Assembly: GCF_006345805.1 (NCBI RefSeq)
Contig: NC_042997.1
Location: 18,786,001-18,850,000, forward strand
Reading direction: 5' to 3'
Origin: Octopus sinensis
Lineage: Eukaryota
DNA: 64,000 nucleotides
Shown piece by piece: positions 2,595-61,082 of this stretch. Numbering within the stretch: the first letter of the stretch is position 1; each line of letters begins with the position of its first letter. The notes under the pieces are model-generated. The model did not search any database, was not told the DNA's origin, and was given only the letters and a program-made list of their open reading frames with translations. The position numbers and the translations under genes were made by a program.

Positions 2595-2986
2595 TATAGG
2601 TGCAGGAGTGGCTGTGTGGTAAATAGCTTGCTTACCAGCCACATGGTTCCAGGTTCATTCCCACTGTGTGACATCTTGGGCAAGTGTCGACCAAAGCCTT
2701 GTGAGTGGATTTGGTAGACGCAAACTGTAAGAAGCCCGTCGTATATATGTATATGTATATATATGTGTGTGTGTTTGTGTGTGTCTGCGTTTGTCCCCAC
2801 AACATCACTTGACAACCGATGCTGGTGTGTTTACGTCCTAGTAACTTAGTGGTTCAGCAAAAGAGACCTATAGGATAAGTACTAGGCTTACAAAGAATAA
2901 GTCCTGGGGTTGATTTGCTCGACTAAATGCAGTGTTCCAGCATGGCCACAGTCAAATGACTGAAACAAGTAAAAGACTAAAAGAGT
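2595..2986 (+). mobile_element. tRNA-derived SINE, dominant family (family A), near full length
   Basis: A box tggctgtgtgg, B-box-like ggttcattccc, internal (TA)/(TG) microsatellite, 3' stem-loop cagtca-aa-tgactg and a (gtaaaaga)n tail; more than 10 copies in the window. Confidence 0.9.
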
Positions 2987-3899
2987 ATATGCATGTATGT
3001 ATGTACATATGCATGCATATATATATAAGGATGTATATGTACATATAAGGATGTATTATGTACATATGCATGCATATATATATAAGGATGTCTGTATATC
3101 TGCAGTGTGTATATGTGTGTGTTCATAAAAGAATTTAAGAGATCCAAGTCTGCCAAGTCTATCTGTGGAGGCTACTAACAACCTCTTTTTCTTTTAATAT
3201 TCAGATTTGATATTCACAGTTTGAGTTGCTTCATTTAGGTCAGCATTTTCTAATTCATCTTTATTTCTACTATTTCCATCTAATCATCACTCTTAATGCA
3301 TGCATCATTGCAACCAGACTACCACACCAGGACACCATATGCTTTCATTGTCTAGAAACACATTTTCTGGATAACTATATGTGCAGTTGCAGCAGTGTTG
3401 TATGAAGTCTTTTACTTCCACTTTCACTTTCTTTCTCTCCATTCTTTCTCTTTTCCCACTCTCTCTGTATTCCTCTTTCTTGTCAAGAATATATTCACAC
3501 CAAGAAAGGTGAGTAACGCAAGAAACTTTTCCATACGAGTGTCAGTACTGCACATGATCATGTGTGTGTGTAAGTGTGTAAGTGTGTGTGTGTGTATGTG
3601 TGTGTGTGTGTATGTGTGTGTGTGTGTGTGTGTGCATGCATGTCTGAGAATGCATATATCTGTGTGTGTACGTGCACATGCATGTGTATACATATGCAAC
3701 AGACCCCTACAAAGCTTCTGTCTACCAAATTCCATTCTAAAGCTATTGGTCAGCCTAAGGCTATGGTAGTAGACCAGAACCAAGTGTTGCACAGTGGGAT
3801 CAAACTTAGAACCACTTACTAAAGATGAATTAGAAAATGCTGACCTAGAATGAAGCAACTCAAACTTACTTGTTGAGTGAAGATCTTGTGCAGCATATA

Positions 3900-3988
3900 A
3901 ACATACAAACATACATACATACATACATACATACATACATACATACATACATACATACATACATACATACATACATACATACATACAT
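3900..3988. repeat. (CATA)n microsatellite
   Basis: Directly visible tandem tetranucleotide. Confidence 0.95.
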
Positions 3989-4002
3989 GCAAAATATATA
4001 TA

Positions 4003-4394
4003 TTACTTGTTTCAGCTATTTGACTGTGGCTGTGCTGGAGCACCGCTTTTAGTCGCACATATCGACCCCAGGACTTATTCTTTGTTAGCCTAGTACTTAT
4101 TCTATCGGTCTCTTTTGCTGAACAGCTAAGTTATGGGGATGTAAACACACCAGCATCAAGCAATGTTGGGGGAACAAACACAGACACACAAACATATATA
4201 CACACACACACACACATATATATATATACGACTGGCTTCTTTAAGTTTCCATCTACCAAATCCATTCACAAAGCTTTGGTTGGCCCGAGGCTATAGTAGA
4301 AGTCACTTGCCCAAGGTGCCATGCAGTGGGACTGAACCTGGAACCATGTAGTTCGTAAGCAAGCTACTTACCACACAGCCACTCCTACACCTAT
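4003..4394 (-). mobile_element. SINE family A, full length
   Basis: Reverse complement of 2595-2986. Confidence 0.9.
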
Positions 4395-4404
4395 ATATAT
4401 ATAT

Positions 4405-10493: not shown

Positions 10494-10532
<39 letters not shown>

Positions 10533-10534
10533 AA

Positions 10535-12221
10535 TCATCATCATCATTTAATGTCCGCTTTCTATGCTAGCATGGGATGGACGATTTGACTTCAGGACTG
10601 GCGAACCCGATGGCTGCACCAGGTTCCAATCTGATCTGGCAGAGTTTCTACAGCTGGAATCCCTTCCTAATGCCAACCACTCCGAGAGTGTAGTGGGTGC
10701 TTTTATGTGCCACAAGCACGAGGGCCAGTCAGGTGGTACTGGTAACGGCCATACGGAAATGGTGTTTTTTACATGCCACCCGCACAGGAGCCAGTCCAGC
10801 GGCACTGGCGTTGAATGTTTTTCATGGGTCACTGGCACAAGTGCCAGTAAGGCAACGCTGGTAACGATCATGCTTGAATGGTGCTTTTTACGTGCCACCG
10901 GCACTTGGTAACCTAGGTAAAAGAAGCTATCAACTATTTCTAGCTTTTCACCCTGGAACGTAGCGGAAGTTCTTCTCTGCTCATTTTCAGTATTTATTGC
11001 TCCTGAGCATCTGCCACATACAAAAACTATCTTTCCATTTAGCCTTCCTTTGATATTGCTGCACTTCTTATGTGTCCATAGCTTACATTGGGTACATCTT
11101 ATAGAGTTTCTACCTATGCCTTTTCTACAGATCAAGCAGGGCTATCTACCTGAAGGGATTTGTGGTTTGCCTGCCTTCCAACTTATTAAGACTTTGGTTT
11201 TAGCTAGGTTGACTCTAAGGCCCTTCGATTCTAATCCTTGTTTCCACACCTGAAACTTCCCCTAAAGTTCTGATAGTGACTCAGCAATTATTGCAAGGTC
11301 GTCAGCATAGAGGAGCTCCCAGTGGCATCCTGTCCTGAATTCTTCTGTTATTGCCTGGAGAACTATGATAAATAGGAGGGGGCTGAGGACTGAACCTTGG
11401 TGGACCCCTACCTTTACCCAGAATTTTTCACTGTACTCGTTGCCAGCCCTCACCTTACTAACAGCGTCCCTGTACATGGCTCGCACAGCACTCACTAACC
11501 ATTTATCTATCCCTAGTTTCCTCATTGACCACCAGGTAAGTGATCAGGGGACCCTGTCAAAGGCTTTCTCCATGTCAACGAAAGCCAGGTACAGAGGTTT
11601 ATCTTTGGCAAGGTATTTCTCCTGCAGCTGTCTTACCAGTAATATAGCATCAGTGGTGCTTTTCCCTGGTACGAACCCAAACTGCATCTCATCTAAACTG
11701 ACTCTCTCCCTAATTAGTTGGGCTATGATCCTCTCCGTGACCTTCATTACCTGATCGAAAAACTTGATACCTCTGTAATTTTTTCTACCTAAAGCATCAC
11801 CTTTTCTTTTGTAGCAGTTGACTATGGTGCTGCTACACCATTCATTGGGTATGACTCCTTTGTGTATCACCTGGTTAACTATACAGGTGACTAGGCTATA
11901 GCCGACAATGCCAGATATTTTGAGCATCTCTGCAGTGATTCCTGATGGGCCAGGGGCTTTCCCTGTCTTCATACTCTTAATTGTTTTATCTACCAAGGTA
12001 CTGTCAACTTGGATAGCTGGTCCCTCTGTTGGGTCGACACTCAGCAGACTCTCTTTCTCCCATTCATTAATTCATTTTCTTTATTGGGCAACCTTTCATA
12101 GTGGCGTCTCCAAACCTCTCTCATTGCAGCCTTGTTTAGTGCAAGTGAACCATAATCCATACAGACACATTTCTCTCCTACAACATCATGAGTCTCTCTC
12201 ACACACTGTCTTGCAACGTGA
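10535..12221 (-). mobile_element. RTE-clade LINE, 5'-truncated, with frameshifted reverse transcriptase
   Basis: ORFs 11544-11996 (KAPGPSG, NYRGI, QFGF, KAFDRVP), 11262-11525 (GVHQGSVLSPLLF, LLYADDL) and 10548-11135 (Cys/His finger, VDSFFYLG); (GAT)n tail at 10535; internal deletion near 10905. Confidence 0.92.
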
Positions 12222-23246: not shown

Positions 23247-24094
23247 GATATATATATGTATATATATATATGCATATAACATCTACGCATTTATTGCAGA
23301 AATATAAGTATTTATGTGAATGCATACATTATCTGATTTAATAGCCTAGACAATAAAACCTTATGCAAAGTTTAAAGAATCAGAGAAAACACCAGAAAAT
23401 TGCTGCCTTGTGAAAACTGCATCTTTCAAATGTATGATTCCTTAAAGAAATTAGTGCAAACCAACAAATCTTGCACAAGAATGAATTGAACATTGTGTCT
23501 GTAAGGAAATATTTGTAGGCTATGGTGAAGAAATGTAGACTTGATAAAGCATTTCTCATGGTTAGTAAAGAAAAGAAAATCATCATAATATATGTGTGTG
23601 TGTAGTAGGATGGTGAGAGGGGGTGTCACAGAGAGACAAGGGATTCTATGCTAAGAGAAGTTAAGCTTCTTGTCAGCTTTTCACTTTTTCTTCATTTTTC
23701 AATTCTGTCATCTTTCATTCTTATCTTTTGGTTTCCCCGTTGCTAATTGCTAATTTCTCAATTATCACTTCCTTCTACCTGTTCATTCTTCCTGTTCTTC
23801 ATTCCTCCCAACTTAGCTTAACATCTCTTAGCATAGCATCCCGTTTCTCTCTGACACCCTCTCTCACCATCCTACTAACAGCATTACCCTGTTGTCTCTC
23901 TGTACTAGACTACAACTATGATGCCTGAGATACACCAATACTTTATTACATTCTAAGACTGATGAAAATAAATATTTGCTAGGTGTGAAAAGGATATAAA
24001 ATGATATATATATATATGAATGCCTATAATCAATTAATGTAATATTCCTTATTTATTATTTATTGTAGTCTATGGTCAGTTAATATTTAAGATA

Positions 24095-31074: not shown

Positions 31075-31595
31075 GCTTGACTAAGCCACCTAACGAAACG
31101 ATTGGTCAAAACGTTGATGACGTCACGTTACGCTGGACTGACCACCTAACAGGTGATATAAAACCCAAACAATTCACAAGGTTCACCAGAACTATCCAGC
31201 GAACACCGACCAAAAGTCATCACAGTTGCTCAAGGTAAAATCTAAAATGAATTCCTTGCTCTTTCAGGAACATCAATTTTTTATATTGACTGCATATCAC
31301 CACTTTGATCTATCTTTTATATTGAATGCATATCACCACTATGAACCACTGCATCATACTCTTTGAACATATAGCATGAACGAACTCACTTCACTATATA
31401 TGAACTTTTGATGCCTGACTCTATTGTATGTTATAAATGAATTTTTTATATTTGATAGCATGAACTATCTTTTTTTATATATAACTTTTTTTGATAAGGT
31501 TCATCATTTCAAGAACCGAAACATGTTATAATGTATATATAAAAATTAAAAATTAGTCTAATATAGCAGCATTTTCGAACTTCATTTTTTACAAA
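31075..31595 (+). mobile_element. TA-inserted pLTR-like element with promoter motifs and a degenerate hammerhead
   Basis: ATTGG at 31101, TGACGTCA at 31118, TATAAAA at 31157; tTGATAA-ggttc...gaacc-GAAA-catg-TT at 31491-31527. Confidence 0.55.
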
Positions 31596-31611
31596 TATAT
31601 ATATATATATA

Positions 31612-31822
31612 TATTAATAATAAATATTAGGGAATAAATCCAAACTTACATGGAAAAATCAGATGAAGAAGTTAGCAGGCATGAAACGATCGTATTGTGA
31701 TATTAATTATATTTTTTTAATAATTTTGTTATATATTTAAATAATATAAATTAAATAATCTTATGTATTGGCTTAAGTTTTTCATTGTTTGATTTGCCTA
31801 ATAGTGGTTTTGTCTCTAATTA

Positions 31823-31830
<8 letters not shown>
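31612..31830 (+). mobile_element. Short TA-flanked element retaining the 3' half of a hammerhead
   Basis: ggcat-GAAA-cgatcg-TA at 31678-31694 (palindromic loop); the 5' core is missing. Confidence 0.4.
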
Positions 31831-31873
<43 letters not shown>

Positions 31874-32013
31874 GGGTGTGTGTGAAGAATATATTAATAA
31901 AAGGAATTCCAACCTTGTCTGATTTTCACGTTTTATTTACAATCTTATAATGATATAAGATAATATAATATAATAAAATAAAATAAAATAGAATGTTAAA
32001 TGTTCATTCTGAT

Positions 32014-32058
32014 TGAACTAGTACTTTCATGCATTAAATTCTGCAATCTTCAGATTCA
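32014..32058 (-). ncRNA. Minimal type I hammerhead ribozyme (mirror copy)
   Basis: Minus strand: tgaat-CTGAAGA-ttgca-gaatttaa-tgcat-GAAA-gtac-TA-gttca. Confidence 0.75.
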
Positions 32059-32135
32059 TGTAGTAGTGGTGACAGTCATGCTTCACAATTTTTGACAGTC
32101 AAAAATTGTGAAGCATGACTGTCACCACTACTACA

Positions 32136-32180
32136 TGAACCTGAAGATTGCAGAATTTAATGCATGAAAGTACTAGTTCA
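32136..32180 (+). ncRNA. Minimal type I hammerhead ribozyme
   Basis: tgaac-CTGAAGA-t-tgca-gaatttaa-tgca-t-GAAA-gtac-TA-gttca: stem I tgaac/gttca, stem II tgca/tgca, 1-bp stem III closed by a palindromic GTAC loop. Confidence 0.8.
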
Positions 32181-32299
32181 ATCAGAATGAACATTTAACA
32201 TTCTATTATTTTATTTTATTTTATTATATTATATTATCTTATATCATTATAAGATTGTAAATAAAACGTGAAAATCAGTCAAGGTTGGAATTCCTTTTA

Positions 32300-32340
<41 letters not shown>

Positions 32341-35854: not shown

Positions 35855-36250
35855 AGCTGTGTGGTAAGTAGCTTGCTTGCCTACCACATAGTTCTTGATT
35901 CAGTACCACAGTGTGGCACCTTTGGCAAGTGTCTTCTACTATAGCCTTGGGCTGACCAAAGCCTTGTGAGTGGATTTGGTTGACAGAAACTGAAAGAAGC
36001 CTGTCGTATATATGTATATCTCTTTACTCTTTTACTCTTTTACTTGTTTCAGTCATTTGACTGCGGCCATGCTGGAGCACCGCCTTTTTAATCGAGCAAA
36101 TCAACCCCAGGACTTATTCTTTTGTAAGCCCAGTACTTATTCTATCGGTCTCTTTTGCCGAACCGCTAAGTAACGGGGACATAAACACACCAGCATCGGT
36201 TGTCAAGCAATGCTAGGGGGACAAACACAAACACACAAACACACACACGC

Positions 36251-36283
<33 letters not shown>

Positions 36284-36364
36284 TATATATATATACATAC
36301 ATATATACGACGGGCTTCTTTCAGTTTCCGTCTACCAAATCCACTCACAAGGCTTTGGTCGGCC

Positions 36365-43625: not shown

Positions 43626-45319
43626 ATTGATTTGGTTATGTTTATATAACTTAGCAGTTTGTCAAAAGAACCGATAAAACATGTACCAAACTTTAAAAAG
43701 GTACTGGAGTCAATTTGTTCAACTACGAAAACCTCCACCTCTAACTTTTATTTTTTAATATTTATTATTGAAACAAAATTTATGATAACATAAATATGGC
43801 AACATACTAACAAGTTTAAACCACATCTATATCTACTGGTTACAGCTCTTCCATTTCATTTATTATATTGATGTTTTGAAAAACCTTTATTTCTTTTTTT
43901 AATAAATTTAAAATGTTATGTCTGTGTAAGAAAACAATAATGAAATCAAATAAAGATGAGTGAGTCAACTAAAATAATAGTTGTAACTATAAATGCAAGA
44001 AATGGTTGGTGTATATGAATGTAAATGAGGGTGTTTTGAAACTATATAGGAGTGTTTGTAAGTGAATGTATCAAACAGTATTCTTTTATGAGAATGACCC
44101 AGGGAAAAAAATCAAGAACCGCAGTAGGAAAACCATGTAGTGATCCAAGAAGTTTATTTAATTCAAATTAAACCCAGTGTTTTGAGAAATAGTCATTATC
44201 TTAATGAAAGACATGGAAGATAACCTGAAAATTTAGACTAATTTAAATCAATTCTACCAAAGATCAAAACTCCTTTAATATTGCATTCTATTCTTTTTTA
44301 TTCTTTTGGTTGGCCCGAGGCTATAGCAGAAGACACTTGCCCAAGGTTCCACAGAAGGGGACCGAACCCAGAACCATGCGGTAGGGAACCCAGCTTTTTA
44401 CCACACAGCCATTCCTGCACCCATATCCAATTAATTTTAATTAATTTTAATTTTCTCATCTTTCTTTTTTGACTAAAATAGGTTAAGTTTCATAAATATA
44501 GGTTTAATGTGAATAAATTAAAATTTCCTCTAGCCTTATTACATCATGTAATACTTTAAATTATTCGTTTATAATACATATTTGTGTACAGCATACACCT
44601 GTAATTATGGGCAACAAAATCCCAGAAAATATTTCTCATGCATTATACACACTAACTGTTTTTAGCAACATGTTTGATTATAATAGGAGTGTTTAACTAG
44701 ATTTATTATAATTGCTGTATCAAATTTGTTGAAAAATTCATGCATCCTAAATGAAGTAAAAAATATAAATTTGAAAGTGACTATTGAGCTTTATAGGTGT
44801 AGGTTAGGCTGTAAAGTTTATGTGGAAATTACATGCATATGTTTTTCATGAAAATATTTTGTATGATATATAAATACAAAATATATTGTTCATTTTAAGG
44901 CTAAATCAGGTGACAATATCCATGACCTTTCTGCAAAGCTTTTGAAATTAGTAGCTATCATCAGACCAGAGATTTAACATAAATTTTTGCCTCAGGGTGG
45001 AGTACACTTACGGTGCCCAACAGCTAAGTGGTGATGTTAATGGGATGGGTTAATCAAACACAAGAGTAGGTACGGTTCATAAGCAGATTCAGCCAACCAG
45101 TTTCACTCACAAAGCTTGGATCAATGTGAGACGGTGTGTGTGAAATTATTTTCACAAGGACTTATACAGCCGGATCAAGACCAGAAACAATAAACAGGTA
45201 TATTACTTTAAATGAAGTAGGTACTTTATGCATTATATTACAAATATCTCTCCACTGCCCTTTTGGTATATCATGACACTTGATAGAAAGTTTTGTATAT
45301 TCAATATTTATAGTACACA

Positions 45320-45535
45320 AGGCAGCAAGCTGGCAGAAACATTAGACCGTTGGGAAAAATGCTTCACTGTATTTCATCTGTCTTTACTTTCTGAGTTCAA
45401 ATTCCACTGAGATCAACTTTGCCTTTCATCATTTTGGGGTTGATAAATTAAATTCCAGTTGTGTACTAGAGTTGATCTGATCAACTGGCCCCTCCCTAAA
45501 AATTTTGAATCTTATGCCTAGAATAGAAAAGAATA
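45320..45535 (+). mobile_element. SINE family C
   Basis: Homologous to 43390-43625 and 41228-41430. Confidence 0.75.
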
Positions 45536-45770
45536 TTTATAGTGCACATATTGTATTGAGTTCCAACTGCTTTCTGTCCTAATATAATACAAGCTCACTT
45601 TCTAAATATTGCTTCAGTTTGTGCATTCTATAACTGAATATTCATCTACTTCTCATTGCATTGCTCTTTTGTATGATTTTACTGTCCACCACTATTCTGG
45701 GTGTGTGACATATCAGTAGATCTTCAAAAAAAGCCACTCACAAAGCTTGGATCATACAGCCATTCCTACA

Positions 45771-46173
45771 TAGACGTAGGAGTGGCTGTGTGGCAAGTAG
45801 CTTGCTTACCAGCCTCATGGTTTCGGGTTCAGTTCCACTGTGTGGCACCTTGGGCAAGTGTCTTCTACGATTGCCTCAGGCTGACCAAAGCCTTGTGAGT
45901 GGATTTGATAGATGGAAACTGAAAGAAGCCCGTCATATATGTGTATATATGTGTATGTGTGTATGTATATGTTTGTGTATCTGTGTTTGTCCCCCCAACA
46001 TCGCTTGACAACCAATGCTGGTGTGTTTACATCCCAGTAACTTAGCAGTTCGGCAAAAGAGACTGATAGAATAAGTACTAGGCTTACAAAGAATAAGTCC
46101 TGGGGTCGATTTGTACGACTAAAGGTGGTGCTCTAGCATGGCCACAGTCAAATGACTGAAACAAGTAAAAGAG
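45771..46173 (+). mobile_element. SINE family A, full length
   Basis: Matches the family A consensus. Confidence 0.9.
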
Positions 46174-47004
46174 CAAAATCACAAATAAAAACTGGTCATT
46201 TGCTTATGAAACTTCCAAAATATAGAAAATCCTTATACTTCAACCTCAATGGCTATATTAGTAAATATGATTATAATTAAAGCTCTGATGACCAGCCAGT
46301 CATACACAAAGTGTTTTTCTACAGTTCATATCTTGTTTATAGACTCTTTTAGCTAAAATTATTATCACCTGAATCTAATTATCTGAGCACCTAGAAAATT
46401 ACAGAAGATATGCTTTGCCATATCCTACTTAAGGGATTTTACCCTTGTCTCACTTAAAAAATGGTGAGTTGTCTGTAGTATGATATCCTAGTACAAATTT
46501 AAACTTCCTCTTAAACCAAATTCTGTCTTGTATATAACACTCTCTACTACCTTCATTCTCTGTAAATTCACCTTTCCTGTAATTTTCCTTTTAATTTTGC
46601 AACAATTATCATTTCAGACTTGATTAACTAAAACATAAATATTATGAAGATGCCTAAATTTTGTAATTTTGTTATTTACAACATATTTTGTTATTGTAAT
46701 TTATATTGACAAAGAAATAGAAGTTATTGAAATGGAAAGACAATTTTTACATTTTCTATTGAATAATTTATGTCAGCTTAGTTCCATACATAACATAGAT
46801 AGTGAAAGCATTATTATAAAACAACAACCAGCAATATCCACTGCGTCAGCCAGTTTATTATCATTTTTTTTTGACACAACACTTTCAATCCAATTTCATA
46901 GAAGAAAATGGAATTCCAAGATGCTAGAGATTTAAATAAGCAATAAATAGTCAGAGCCATTAGAGTATTGGATAGAAAGCCTCTTTGTATATATATATAT
47001 ATAT

Positions 47005-47076
<72 letters not shown>

Positions 47077-47161
47077 TATAATTGTTAAACAGGACATCAA
47101 ACATTAAGGCAAGGCAAAAATCTCAAGTCATATACAATATTATAACAGGAAGAAATTCAAA

Positions 47162-47218
47162 ATCTTACAGCTGTTCCAGGGATATCCTAGAGTATGGAAT
47201 ATTCTGTCATCAGAGACA
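47162..47218 (-). ncRNA. Hammerhead motif, mutated copy (GGAA instead of GAAA)
   Basis: Minus strand: tct-CTGATGA-cagaatattcc...ggatatccct-GGAA-cagctg-TA-aga. Confidence 0.55.
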
Positions 47219-47470
47219 AATCGAGGAAAAAATATGGAATACTGACATGGATATACTCAGGATTGCACCTAAAGACTTACACACATGGATATATGCAGGA
47301 TTGCACCTAAGGACTCATGCTTTCATTTCAATAACTTTGGAAAGCTGAACTATGAACTTTTATGTCTCTTTTCTTCTCTCTTTCCATCTCCTTATTCTTT
47401 TACTCCCTTCCTCTATGTTATCATCTTATTGATATATACCATTCTCATTTTCCATATTTTTTCCCCAATT

Positions 47471-47527
47471 TGTCTCTGATGATGGAATATCCCATACTTG
47501 AGGATATCCGTGAAACAGCTGTAAGGT
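47471..47527 (+). ncRNA. Type I hammerhead ribozyme motif
   Basis: gtct-CTGATGA-tggaatatcc-catacttga-ggatatccgt-GAAAC-agct-GTA-aggt: intact core, palindromic CAGCTG, GUA triplet, short stem I. Confidence 0.75.
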
Positions 47528-47637
47528 TTTTGAATTTCTTCCTGTAATAATATTGTATATGGCTTGATATTTTTGCATCACCTTAATGCTTCACATCCTG
47601 TTTAACAATTATATATATATATGTGTATATATATATA

Positions 47638-50574
47638 TCATCATCATCATCATCATCATTTAGCGTCCGTTTTCCATGCTAGCATGGGTTGGACGGTTCA
47701 ACTGGAGTCTGGGGAGCCTGAAGGCTGCACCAGGCCAGTCAGATCTGGCAGTGTTTCTACAGCTGGATGCCCTTCCTAACGCCAACCACTCCGAGAGTGT
47801 AGTGGGTAATTTTATGTGCCATCGACACAGGTGCCAGACGAGGCTGGCGAACGGCCACGCTCGGATGGTGTTTTTATGTGCCACCGTCACAGGTGCCAGA
47901 CGAGGCTGGCAGACGGCCACGCTCGGATGGTGTTTTTATGGGCCACGCTCGGATGGTGTTTTTATGTGCCACCGACACAGGTGCCAGACGAGGCTGGCAG
48001 ACGGCCACGCTCGGATGGTGTTTTTATGTGCCACCGACACAGGTGCCAGATGAGGCTGGCGGACGGCCACGATCGGATGGTGTTTGTTACGTCCCCAAAG
48101 CACGGAGGCCAGTCTATGCGGCACTGGCTACGGCCACGTTCGGATGATTTTCTTGTGTGCCACCGGCACTGGTACCACAAAGATACAAATTCCATTGATG
48201 TTCATCTATTTTGATTTGTTTTGATTTGATTTTCACTTGCCTCAACAGGTCTTCACAAGTGTCATAAGAAGGAAGGTATGCACAGGTGGACTGACTACGT
48301 CCCAGGTAGGGGCCACGGGTTATGGCCTGACTAGTCTTGCCGGGTCTTTGGATGGTGTTTTTATGTGCCACCGACAGAGGTGCCAGATGAGGCTGGCGAA
48401 CGGCCATGATCGGATGGTGTTTGTTACGTGCCCACAGCACGGAGGCCAGTCGATGCGGTACTGGCTACGGCCACGTTCAGATGGTTTTCTTGTGTGCCAC
48501 CGGCACTGGTACCACAAAGATACAAATTCCATTGATGTTCATCTATTTTGATTTGATTTGATTTGATTTTCACTTGCCTCAACAGGTCTTCACAGGTCTT
48601 CACAAGTGTCACAAGAAGGAAGGAAGGTATGCACAGGTGGACTGACTACGTCCCAGGTAGGGGCCACGGGTTATGGCCTGACTAGTCTTGCCGGGTCTTC
48701 GGTTGGTGTTTTTATGTGCCACCGACACAGGTGCCAGATGAGGCTGGCGAACGGCCATGATCGGATGGTGTTTGTTATGTGCCCACATCACAGAGGCCAG
48801 TCGATGCGGTACTGGCTACGGCCACGTTCGGATGGTTTTCTTGTGTGCCACCGGTACTGGTACCACAAAGATACAAATTCCATTGATGTTCATCTATTTT
48901 GATTTGGTTTGATTTGATTTGATTTGATTTGATTTTGATTTTCACTTGCCTCAACAGGTCTACACAAGTGTCACACACTTGCCTCAACAGGTCTTCACAA
49001 GTGTCATAAGTGGGAAGGTATGCACAGGTGGACTGACTACGTCGCCGGGTCTTCGGATGGTGTTTTTATGTGCCACCGACACAGGTGCCAGATGAGGCTG
49101 GCGAACGGCCACGATCAGATGGTGTTTGTTGTGCCCACAGCATGGAGGCCAGTCGATGCGGTACTGGCTACGGCCACGTTCGGATGGTTTTCTTGTGTGC
49201 CACCGGTACTGGAACCACAAATACAATTCCATTGATGTTCATCTATTTTGATTTGGTTTGATTTTCACTTGCCTCAACAGGTCTTCACAAGTGTCACACA
49301 CTGCCTCAACAGGTCTCCACAAGTGTCACACACTTGCCTCTGCCTCAACAGGTCTTCACAAGTGTCACACACTTGCCTCAACAGGTCTTCACAAGTGTCA
49401 TAAGAGGGAAGGTATGCACAGGTGGACTGACTACGTCGCCGGGTCTTCGGATGGTGTCTTTATGTGCCACCGACACAGGTGCCAGATGAGGCTGGCGAAC
49501 GGCCACGATCGGATGGTGTTTGTTGTGTCCACAGCATGGAGGCCAGTCGATGCGGTACTGGCTACGGCCACGTTCGGATGGTTTTCTTGTGTGCCACCGG
49601 TACTGGAACCACAAAGATACAAATTCCATTGATGTTCATCTATTTTGATTTGGTTTGATTTTCACTTGCCTCAACAGGTCTTCACAAGTGTCACACACTT
49701 GCCTCAACAGGTCTCCACAAGTGTCACACACTTGCCTCTGCCTCAACAGGTCTTCACAAGTGTCACACACTTGCCTCTGCCTCAACAGGTCTTCACAAGT
49801 GTCACACACTTGCCTCAACAGGTCTTCACAAGTGTCATAAGAGGGAAGGTATGCACAGGTGGACTGACTACGTCGCCGGGTCTTCGGATGGTGTCTTTAT
49901 GTGCCACCGACACAGGTGCCAGATGAGGCTGGCGAACGGCCACGATCGGATGGTGTTTGTTGTGCCACAGCAAGGAGGTCAGTCAATGCGGTACTGGCTA
50001 CGGCCACGTTCGGATGGTTTTCTTGTGTGCCACCGGTACTGGAACCACAAAGATACAAATTCCATTGATGTTCATCTATTTTGATTTGGTTTGATTTTCA
50101 CTTGCCTCAACAGTCTTCACAAGTGTCACACACTTGCCTCAACAGGTCTCCACAAGTGTCACACACTTGCCTCTGCCTCAACAGGTCTTCACAAGTGTCA
50201 CACACTTGCCTCAACAGGTCTTCACAAGTGTCATAAGAGGGAAGGTATGCACAGGTGGACTGACTACGTCGCCGGGTCTTCGGATGGTGTCTTTATGTGC
50301 CACCGACACAGGTGCCAGATGAGGCTGGCGAACGGCCACGATCGGATGGTGTTTGTTGTGCCCACAGCACGGAGGCTAGTCGATGCGGTACTGGCTACGG
50401 CCACGTTTGGGTGGTTTTCTTGTGTGCCACCGGCACTGGTACCACAAAGAATACAATTCCACTGATGTTCATCTATTTTGATTTGTTTTGATTTGATTTT
50501 CACTTGCCTCAACAGGTCTTCATAAGTGTCACAAGAAGGAAGGTATGCACAGGAGGACTGACTACGTCCCAGGT

Positions 50575-55351: not shown

Positions 55352-56525
55352 TTCATCATCATCATCGTCATTGTTTAACGTCCACTTTCCATGCTGGCAT
55401 GGGTTGGACGGTTTGACTGAGGGTAGGCAAGTCAGAAAACTGCACCATCTCCAATCTGATCTGGCAAAGTTTCTACAGCTGGATGCCCTTCCTAATGCTA
55501 ACCACTCTGAGAGGGTAGTAGGTGTTTTTTACATGCCACCAGCACGATGCCAATCAGACAGTACTGGCATCGACCATGCTTGAATGGTGCCTTTTACATG
55601 CCACTGTCAAAGGAGCTAGTCAGGTGGCATTGGTAATGACCACGCTTGAATGGGGCTTTTTATGTGCCACCAGCACAGGACCAGTTGGGTAGCACTGGCA
55701 TTGACCACACTCGAATGGTACTCTTAAATGGGCTGGTTATGCCGTACTGGCACAGGCCATGGTTATGGTCTCACTTCACTACCTGGGCCTTCTCAAGCAC
55801 AGCATATCTCCAAAGGTCTTGGTCACTTGTCATCGCCTTCGTGAGGCCCAACGTTTGAAGGTCATGCTTCACCACCTCGTACCAGGTTATCCTGGGTCTA
55901 CCTCTTCCACAGGTTCCCACTACTGCTAGGGTTGACACATTTTCACACAGCTGTCCTCATCCATATGCAAGATATGACCATACCAATGCAGTCGTCTCTC
56001 TTGCACACCGCATCTGATGCTTCTTATGTCCAACTTCTTGTATCACCTGATTGACTATACAGGTGACTAGACTATAGCTGACACCGCCAGATATTTTAAG
56101 CATCTCTATGGTGATTCTTGATGGGCCAGGGGCTTTCCCTGTCTTCATACCCTTAATTGCTTTATCTATCAAGATACTGTCAATTCGGGTCACTGATCCC
56201 TTTGCTGGGTCAACAGTTGGCAGACTCTCTTTTTCCCATTCATTCTCTTCATTTAGCAACCTTTCATAGTGGTGTCTCCAAGTCTCTCTCTTAGCAGCCT
56301 CATTAAATGCAACTGAACCATCATCCATGTGGACACATTTCTCTCTCACAACACTGTCTTGCAACACGAAACACTTCAAGTCTCTTGTCCTCATGATGTA
56401 GAACATTGGCAGTTTTTATCTTATCTGTTTCTCCTCTGGCTAAGTAAACCTGTCTCCTAGCCTCTCTTCTGGCAATCTGATACAATTCCCTGCTACCACC
56501 GTTTTTCTAGTCCTTCCATGCCTGA
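55352..56525 (-). mobile_element. RTE LINE remnant with the RT core deleted
   Basis: ORF 55957-56406 (WRHHYERLLN...KAPGPSRIT...VNQVIQE) is fused to C-terminal sequence; (GAT)n tail at 55352. Confidence 0.85.
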
Positions 56526-58292: not shown

Positions 58293-58777
58293 ATTTTAAA
58301 ACATCTTGCTCTCTCTCTCCTCCCTCTCTCTCTATTTCTTTCTTTCTCTTTCTCTCTCTCTCTTATTGTTTTTTGCTGACATCTCATAATGAATTGATAA
58401 TTTAATTGCAAGAAAATAAAGCAATTTAGGAGTCAAATTATGAAGACTGAGTATACATAATCAACAAGCAGATGGTCACAATTTGAACACTTCAAATAAA
58501 TTTTTCACTAGATAAGAAAATACAATAGCAGCTATATTGTCTTTTCTTTATCTGGGATATGGTGCCATATATCTTAAATGTATCCAAAAGATTTATTCAT
58601 TATTTTGCTGTATTACATCCTTCATAAGTAGCATTTATCAATTGCTATGAGTAGAACTTTATATGAGAGTAGCAAATATGCTGTGAGCTGGATGAGTCAT
58701 CAATCTATTGCACAGACAACATTATGGTATTTGTTCTGAATTTCTGTGCTCTGAGTGCAAATTTCACTAAGGCCAGA
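58293..58777. repeat. Left arm of a ~485-bp inverted duplication
   Basis: Reverse complement of 60522-61082 with few mismatches. Confidence 0.95.
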
Positions 58778-59246
58778 CTTAAAACTTTATTGTATTTAAA
58801 ACTTTATTGTATCAATGTGCATATTCTTCAGTAATAACTTCCTTAGATGATAATTCAGAAATTCTTGTGAATATGCTGTTGATGAGGTTATAAAAAGTTT
58901 CTTTGGGTGGTTAGAGAAGTTGTTTTATGTAGTTAATTATTTTAGAGTGTTTTTTTTTTTTATATAAGAGTATTCTGGTGATCGGACAAAAAAATTTCTC
59001 ATCGAATTTCCTTACAAATTGTGAATCCCATCTTATGTATCCTATTCTTTTGATAAAGCCTTCCTTCTTATAGGAATATAATTAGACAGAGTTTCTTTCT
59101 TTAATTGAACAAACCATCTGATAAAAATTGAAGTCAAAGCCTATTTGATCTTCACAAAATACTTACCATGAGTTCTATGAAAATTTGGGATCCATGGTAT
59201 ATACTATTTCTAAAATAAAGTAGTAGAGGTAGTGGTGGTAGTAGTG

Positions 59247-59280
<34 letters not shown>

Positions 59281-59643
59281 ATATACATTTATGAGTTCAA
59301 GAAAATTGTGTAACTTCATTTCGTCTGTCAACAATTTTTTATACTAATACCTGGCAGCCAGTAATTGAAAGTTTCTAGAAAACTTCTGATAAGGAATCTT
59401 TGTCATCTTGCTGAACACACCCAAACTGTAAATATATACCATCTAAACAGTGTATATATCTCCAGAATTAACTTTAGATTCATTCTTGAATGATAAAGTC
59501 TCTAAATAACTTTGTTGTCAAAACTCGATTCTTACTTTATAATTATATAGAAATAAATAGTGCCTCAGGGTGTTGTATCAGTTATTCCTAACAGAAAAAG
59601 ACTGTCTTCTTTTGGTTCAATCATGCTCTAATTTCTGCCAAAC

Positions 59644-59686
<43 letters not shown>

Positions 59687-60521
59687 GTAATTCTTACAGA
59701 TATATGAAATAGAATTTTGTTGCAATGGTTTGTGACTAGTGTAGCCAGAAGCACATAAAGGAATATATTGTTCACACAAAATTTGTGTTTGATAATGATC
59801 GAAAATCAAAAATAATATTTTTTTGATATTTCTTTTTTATTCTTTTTTATATATTTTCTTTTCAGAAAATGACAGTAAATAATCTTTGGAAAATTTGAGA
59901 AGTTAATGAGAATAGGCTAATATTACTTACAGTGTTTACTATTTGTACAAGTTTAGACAGATTTAAAAACTAATTCTATGTAGGAAAATATATTTACTCT
60001 CAGTTACAAAAGAAGAAAAAAAAATCTAAGATAAAACATAATATATGATCAGGCCTCAGATGACCATAATTTCAACTTTTATTTGAATTCCCCAGAAATC
60101 CAGAAATTCATGTGTAAATGATATCCTGAATGATATTTTGGATGACAAAAAAAACCCCTTCAAAAAACAGATTATGTGTGCTAGATGGCAGAGTAATTCA
60201 AGTCAGCTACTCATAATCACATTTGACCATGCATTCACGCACTTGCACAAGTATGTGCAGGCCTTGGCATGATATCTTGAGTAAGAGCAGTAGCTGCTTG
60301 TGCATGGAAATCTCTCTTTCCAGGTACCAATGTTTATCCAAGGAAAAAAGCTGCTGATTTGAACTGTCACTATTTGGCACCTATACTGTTACAAGCATGT
60401 AACCGAAAGTAAAATGCCACAACAGCTTCAACAAGTCAGACTGCTCAACACTTTAACAGTTCTGTCAATTCACTACTCTGGATTGTTACCTTTTTATGAT
60501 CCTCAAAAGATGAAAGACAAA

Positions 60522-61082
60522 TCTGGCCTTAGTGAAATTTGCACTCAGAGCACAGAAATTCAGAACAAATACCATAATGTTGTCTGTGCAATACATTGAT
60601 GACTCATCCAGCTCACAGCTTATTTGCTACTCTGATATAAAGTTCTACTCATAGCAATTGATAAATGCTACTTATGAAGGATGTAATACAACAAAATAAT
60701 GAATAAATCTCGTGAATGGGATATACATTTAAGATATATAGCACCATATCCCAGATAAAGAAAAGACAATATAGCTGCTATTTCATTTTTTCCTTTTTTT
60801 TTTTTCATTTTATCTAGTTTCAGGTCACGAGCTGCGGCCATGCTGGGGCACTGCCATTGTGTTTTCTTATCTAGTGAAAAATTTATTTGAAGTGTTCAAA
60901 TTGTGACTATCTGCTTGTTGATTATGTATACTCAGTCTTCATAATTTGACTCCTATATTGTTTTATTTTCTTGCAATTAAATTATCAATTCATTATGAGA
61001 TGTCAGCAAAAAACAATAAGAGAGAGAGAGAGAGGGGGGGAGCGAGGGAGGGAGAGAGAGAGAGAGCAAGATATTTTAAAAT
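60522..61082. repeat. Right arm of the inverted duplication, with a ~75-bp LINE-tail insertion
   Basis: The insertion at 60783-60858 is absent from the left arm and is flanked by ctgctatt/ctgccatt. Confidence 0.95.

Follow-up and report, generated by a model that had tools for sequence, protein, structure and literature searches.

We find that the 531-bp inverted element at 47080-47610 of the window (the whole 64-kb stretch of DNA that was analysed) is embedded in a (TA)n run; it is likely the decayed remnant of one Penelope-like element (PLE) insertion, the PLE being probably of the Hydra type on the grounds of the comparison given below. An earlier note on this DNA had argued that an architecture occurring twice, here and in a palindrome at 32 kb, points to a mechanism rather than to chance; our analysis supports the PLE-type class of mechanism that it had in mind. 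That class is already published for PLEs (PMC3846280, PMC8557442, PMC4209133), and the two examples in the window amount to a pair of PLE families behaving in a way that is common for PLEs. Because no reverse transcriptase (RT) or endonuclease sequence survives, it is on non-coding anatomy that both the PLE identity and the clade are based: the element resembles a Hydra-type PLE end, which is not proof of membership in the Hydra clade.

The features of the element and of its surroundings are collected in Table 1. The two arms are inverted to each other (BLAST E 3e-52), and their global alignment showed 140 identical positions of 160, with 13 transitions, 7 transversions and 1 gap. Both arms place the identical terminal nucleotide against the TA run, their outermost 15 bp are identical and (TA)n flanks the unit on both sides, as expected from the earlier description of ~160-bp inverted arms in (TA)n. 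The left array is the likely insertion target, and any TA target-site duplication would be masked by the flanking (TA)n. The side of the left arm that touches the left (TA)n would be its 3′ end, and the right arm would be the 3′ end of a longer copy. Each arm carries an outward type-I hammerhead motif, so the outward-pointing geometry described for the 32-kb palindrome is found here too, and the sequence is, as stated before, unrelated to that of the 32-kb arms (42 of 300 shuffles score as high). Neither further copies of either arm or of the spacer nor a direct arm copy or direct pLTR tandem was found within the 64-kb window, and the element has neither a 30-40-bp tail nor a junction palindrome; the direct pLTR tandem and the tail are described as optional PLE features (PMC8557442). 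The common repeat that begins past the right (TA)n also adjoins the LINE remnant at 10.5-12 kb.

Table 1. Features of the inverted element and of the surrounding window (strand given where assigned).
Feature	Position	Strand	Basis or description
Broken LINE	10551-12071	-	RT + PHD domains (Pfam); database proteins are up to 63% identical
Hammerhead-like motif	31491-31600	+	U3-A8 core variant, 5-bp stem II, palindromic stem III
Degenerate hammerhead	31660-31823	+	8-nt palindromic stem III; one mismatch in the core; (TA)n follows after 134 nt
32-kb palindrome	31888-32306		Arms 99% identical, no spacer, hammerhead
Left (TA)n array	46988..47080	.	TRF period 2, 47 copies
Left arm, short inverted copy	47080..47239	-	BLAST + global alignment
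Left hammerhead motif	47162..47217	-	Core at 47213; A13G at 47176; stem II disrupted
Spacer, 210 bp	47240..47449	+	No other match in window
Two 38-bp tandem units	47245..47320	+	47245-47282 / 47283-47320, 32/38 identical
Pyrimidine-rich stretch	47346..47449	+	53 T, 5 G in 104 nt
Right arm, ends against right (TA)n	47450..47610	+	BLAST + global alignment
Right type-I hammerhead motif	47472..47527	+	Descriptor, folding
Right (TA)n, then end of common repeat	47610..47638	.	
Complex satellite	47640-50560		Periods 62, 351, 394, 437 bp; between two (TA)n runs
Second related LINE fragment	55960-56415	-	By eye
~2.8-kb inverted-arm element	58293-61082		~490-bp arms, 91-93% identical, TTAA-like flanks, no hammerhead
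Other inverted pairs	2595-4395, 23603-23877, 35950-36364, 44305-45889		

The hammerhead motifs were assessed with a strict descriptor (core, stem I of at least 3, stem II of at least 4, palindromic stem III), which gave 3 matches in the 64-kb window: one in the right arm and one in each arm of the 32-kb palindrome. As a null, 300 dinucleotide-matched Markov windows yielded 24 matches, 2 of them with a palindrome of at least 6 nt and 0 with one of at least 8 nt. A PLE-type insertion rather than chance is the best reading. The right motif has every core base (CTGATGA at 47476, GAAA at 47512), and the descriptor confirmed, together with UH, the intact CTGATGA/GAAA core that had been reported for this arm. 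Its stem III is the 8-nt palindrome ACAGCTGT, stem I has 4 bp, two of them G-U, and stem II is long and bulged (z -3.31; 0 of 200 shuffles as good); the cut site is predicted after 47523, and the predicted cut in each arm lies ~86 nt from (TA)n. In the left arm GGAA does replace GAAA, as the earlier note had read it, but the damage is wider than that one changed base (47176), since stem II is broken as well. Compared to the right stem II (-9.8 kcal/mol), the left one has a folding energy of -2.0 kcal/mol, and 45 of 200 shuffles are as good, that is, the stem fails. The left hammerhead is predicted to be dead because of A13G and the low folding energy of its stem II, and the left arm gave no descriptor match even with one core mismatch permitted. 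Rfam gave 5 matches at E<=10 for 47400-47600, and neither these nor the best 150 of its 176 for the whole window include a hammerhead, an outcome that speaks against the reading. In prokaryotic genomes a gapped hammerhead pattern of 23 bases had 0 matches, as expected of an animal repeat.

Folding suggested that the right motif would act, if at all, as a dimer. The monomer has a hammerhead fold of -4.3 kcal/mol compared to an optimum of -13.5 kcal/mol, while in the dimer fold two right motifs pair through the intermolecular 8-bp palindrome with stem II kept (stem I lies outside that fold). This agrees with the published observation that PLE hammerheads with a palindromic stem III need a dimer to cleave (PMC4209133), and since such ribozymes need a dimer, a cleavage assay on the monomer 47460-47535 would probably give a false negative. 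The G10.1-C11.1 pair typical of PLE minimal hammerheads is absent, which speaks against a firm assignment to a clade, and T precedes the GAAA position in both arms. A transcript that reads through the element from either side is predicted to fold into a hairpin of ~160 bp (energies of -225 and -250 kcal/mol, with z of -18.7 and -22.3, and for both directions 0 of 100 shuffles as stable), which would bury either ribozyme. Because opposite strands bar one shared RNA and the read-through hairpin would bury the ribozyme, the hammerhead pair is probably a by-product and not a working unit, and the element now probably does nothing as a ribozyme. Cooperation of the two ribozymes in cis was considered and rejected, given the opposite strands and the dominant hairpin.

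The claim that this element is older than the 32-kb palindrome is supported by the arm differences, which number 20 of 160 here and 2 of 206 there (Fisher P = 5e-6), and by CpG decay; the spacer-less 32-kb palindrome may have been homogenised, and hence look younger than its true age. CA versus TG accounts for 3 of the 4 adjacent double differences between the arms, a number given by 0 of 20,000 simulations. The CA/TG doublet is the mark of one CpG decaying on opposite strands, and its share of the double differences suggests that the arms began nearly identical and then decayed in place. The observed/expected CpG ratio is 0.33 in the window, 0.14 in the element and 0.65 in the satellite next to it. 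The hammerhead columns have not been conserved better than the others (9 of 56 differences versus 12 of 105 elsewhere; P = 0.46), so that this column comparison of two arms gives no sign of selection on the hammerhead core after insertion. For an octopus host, and if the calibration of PMC13282606 holds (a distance of 0.09 for 25 My), a per-arm divergence of ~0.04-0.07 would correspond to roughly 10-20 My. Octopus transposons are reported as unmethylated (PMC9476566), and the CpG decay of the element would fit a methylated gene body in octopus. The Pfam scan covered 127 of the 279 high-complexity frames of at least 55 aa in the window, and none of these was identified as a host exon.

No PLE origin can be recognised in the spacer, which is likely either sequence from further upstream in the longer right copy or DNA that was captured; the two Pfam-scanned frames that cover it gave no match. 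The tandem duplication described for it is present, with a period of 38 bp and not of ~35 bp, and its units begin 5 nt past the inner end of the left arm; their divergence resembles that of the arms (Fisher P = 0.60). The pyrimidine-rich stretch shares a T-rich strand bias with the right arm. We also considered the spacer as the end of a PLE ORF, in view of the peptides WIY, IAPKD and CRI, which faintly recall PLE endonuclease C-termini, and dropped this candidate, for which the spacing is 7 nt too short and frameshifts are required.

PLE ORFs encode an RT with a GIY-YIG endonuclease at the C terminus, and the Hydra clade has the motifs RWK, DKT and CxCX5C (PMC8557442). The 531 bp contain no ORF and neither a PLE RT nor a GIY-YIG, and the search for a parent PLE ORF gave 4 matching frames among those scanned, all LINE-type (RVT_1 twice, PHD, zf-RVT) and none of them PLE or GIY-YIG. 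Hydra-clade PLEs are described as having canonical hammerheads and, in almost all families, as lying in (TA)n (PMC8557442), where our element is also inserted. We compared it against the 25 Hydra-clade families with a hammerhead in the table of that paper, counting Penelope-13_HM, which is listed twice, once. By our own count of that table, the distance from motif start to 3′ end is 87-210 nt in 23 of the 25 families, and it is 158 nt here when the sense orientation is defined by the hammerhead itself. A T before GAA is found in both arms, as in 17 of 25 families. The right arm and the 32-kb arms have a T on either side of the stem II base, as do 14 of 25 families, a likeness that is weakened because the T after the right core sits in a CA/TG doublet and is probably a product of CpG decay. 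An acag..ctgt stem III occurs in 4 of the 25. Exact searches gave 0 matches both for 5 short motifs (2 from stem III, 3 from the arms and spacer) in the PMC8557442 supplement, where line breaks can hide matches, and for the 2 stem III motifs in one supplement of PMC4209133.

The arrangement of the arms speaks for a PLE. Inverted 5′-truncated copies are often found at the 5′ end of PLEs, and Penelope-13_HM has such a copy, with hammerheads on both strands (PMC8557442); here the arm geometry places an inverted copy next to the 5′ end, and this copy would be the truncated one. Opposite-strand hammerhead pairs 100-700 bp apart were reported in 2014 and attributed to truncated PLEs (PMC4209133), and a supplement legend of the same paper describes a 5′-truncated PLE with a second, opposite-strand hammerhead at its 5′ end. 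Head-to-head pLTRs were the most frequent inverted arrangement observed in PMC3846280.

From the geometry, identical ends, motifs, divergence and CpG pattern observed here, we infer how the unit formed. Reverse transcription likely started twice at one 3′ end during a single insertion. The GIY-YIG endonuclease would have nicked both strands of the self-complementary (TA)n, and each nick would have primed cDNA from the same start point, with the copies pointing inward. Both cDNAs would have stopped early, at ~160 and ~370 nt, and their 5′ ends would have been joined, slippage leaving a 38-bp duplication where they meet. The product would be a long copy (spacer and right arm) plus a short inverted copy, the arms of which would afterwards decay in place, mostly at CpG. 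A purified PLE protein is reported to cleave and extend both target strands, favouring DNA that is AT-rich, to begin reverse transcription at identical sites on either strand and to be predicted as a dimer (PMC11167929); that protein is of the Poseidon clade, whereas our element is likened to Hydra. Within the PLE reading we give two-ended priming somewhat better than an even chance, and a fold-back of the cDNA somewhat less than one.

Fold-back, which across all readings we hold to be a serious possibility but not the probable one, keeps the same PLE origin: the cDNA or an intermediate would have paired with itself inside the arm and copied the arm out to (TA)n, with the spacer remaining as the loop. 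Fold-back accounts for the identity of the outer ends as well, and it fits the spacer-less 32-kb palindrome. Self-priming has been proposed for head-to-head PLE inversions, although the published model relies on junction palindromes and the arms here are 210 bp apart (PMC3846280). Patchy similarity just inside the arms is reached by 67 of 2000 shuffles at 25 nt, but it is weak at 15 and 40 nt (141 of 2000 and 204 of 2000), and at these three lengths it neither supports nor excludes fold-back.

We consider it unlikely that the whole arm-spacer-arm unit is a 'retro-MITE', a multicopy non-autonomous hairpin family copied by PLE proteins in trans. The precise, symmetric ends would suit such a family, and there is a description of unrelated DNA that had been captured between pLTRs and was mobilised in trans (PMC3846280). 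However, the unit is a single copy within 64 kb, its transcript would be a very stable hairpin, and the decay of its arms gives no hint of selection. The literature searched gave no retro-MITE family, with the pLTR-bounded captured DNA of PMC3846280 coming close. If true, retro-MITEs would be two inverted PLE ends misfiled by repeat annotators as DNA-transposon MITEs.

An origin as an ordinary DNA-transposon MITE, with 160-bp TIRs, a TA target duplication and a hammerhead acquired by chance or capture, appears very unlikely. The element is indeed short and non-coding with terminal inverted repeats, the outermost stretch of its arms is perfectly matched, and a TA duplication is possible within (TA)n. 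Against this origin, its termini to our knowledge match no end motif of a DNA-transposon superfamily, a motif of the quality of the right arm, which moreover has a PLE-typical distance and orientation, is missing from all the null windows, and the other inverted-arm element of the window (58293-61082) has no descriptor match and lies outside (TA)n. MITEs are defined by many uniform copies and a partner transposase (PMC8969392). Equally improbable, a single ordinary PLE insertion could have gained its inverted arm later at (TA)n by a host template switch during replication or repair, and a switch in (TA)n, which is self-complementary and fragile, would also end at TA, but this requires two events where one explains a junction duplication about as diverged as the arms, and all 3 strict hammerhead matches in the window sit in inverted pairs.

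The window also holds other motifs and repeats (Table 1). The motif at 31491-31600 is possibly a third PLE end; it lies ~70 nt before a TA run, its stem I is too weak for the descriptor, and its U3-A8 core variant has been described (PMC4209133). Together with the degenerate hammerhead at 31660-31823 and the 32-kb palindrome, it likely forms a cluster of PLE ends in one TA array. The left arm of the 32-kb palindrome has ~16 extra nt before (TA)n (31873-31888), a possible PLE tail. The element at 58293-61082 looks like a derivative of a TIR DNA transposon, with one arm interrupted by another repeat, and the inverted pairs at 2.6-4.4 kb and 36 kb are opposed copies of a common SINE-like repeat without a hammerhead. 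The satellite at 47640-50560 is the expanded end of a common repeat resembling 10519-10800, beside the LINE remnant. Among the at least 120 matches listed for a search with the neighbouring RT protein, only an animal LINE family appeared, and the 3 matches with a name come from a sea slug, a catfish and a clam-symbiont assembly.

The architecture is already established for PLEs, the locus is a decayed example of a published layout, and a single locus matters little. The route by which PLEs make inverted insertions is nevertheless named as unresolved in PMC8557442. In short inverted remnants such as the 47-kb element and the 32-kb palindrome, the PLE inversion step has left a natural record, and the junctions of such remnants across the genome could separate two-ended priming from fold-back. 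They also carry a practical warning, since such PLE remnants resemble MITEs and Rfam overlooks their hammerheads.

Among named systems, TIR-transposon MITEs (PMC8969392) share with the element its short length, lack of coding sequence and inverted ends, whereas its arms bear a ribozyme of the PLE type, placed as is typical of PLEs. Non-LTR retrozymes (bioRxiv 10.64898/2026.07.22.740005) are likewise non-coding, derived from PLEs and equipped with a type-I hammerhead, but they are described as head-to-tail tandems with same-strand ribozymes, whereas the two ribozymes here are on opposite strands; identity with them was rejected, as there are no head-to-tail units with same-strand hammerheads. 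The head-to-head pLTRs of Adineta vaga Penelope elements (PMC3846280) are truncated copies with inverted repeats of ~180-220 bp that sometimes enclose unrelated DNA; a tail, palindromes at the junction and target duplications of 8-10 bp are frequent in their insertions, and our element has no visible trace of these. The dual minimal hammerheads of truncated PLEs in Schistosoma mansoni and others (PMC4209133) lie on opposite strands at the spacings given above, compared to ~260 nt between cores here, and share the short stem I, the long stem II and the palindromic, dimer-requiring stem III, although our element lacks G10.1-C11.1 and its stem III is longer. Compared to the Hydra-clade PLEs (PMC8557442), the element lacks an ORF and any motif match to the published consensus set, its stem II is longer, and its stem III is an 8-nt palindrome that is perfect and lacks an extra base in the loop. 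It shares with them, as exemplified by Penelope-13_HM and Hydra-1_Obim, the (TA)n target, the hammerhead near the 3′ end, the T before GAA and, for some families, the acag..ctgt stem III, and with Penelope-13_HM in particular the 5′-truncated inverted copy that places hammerheads on both strands.
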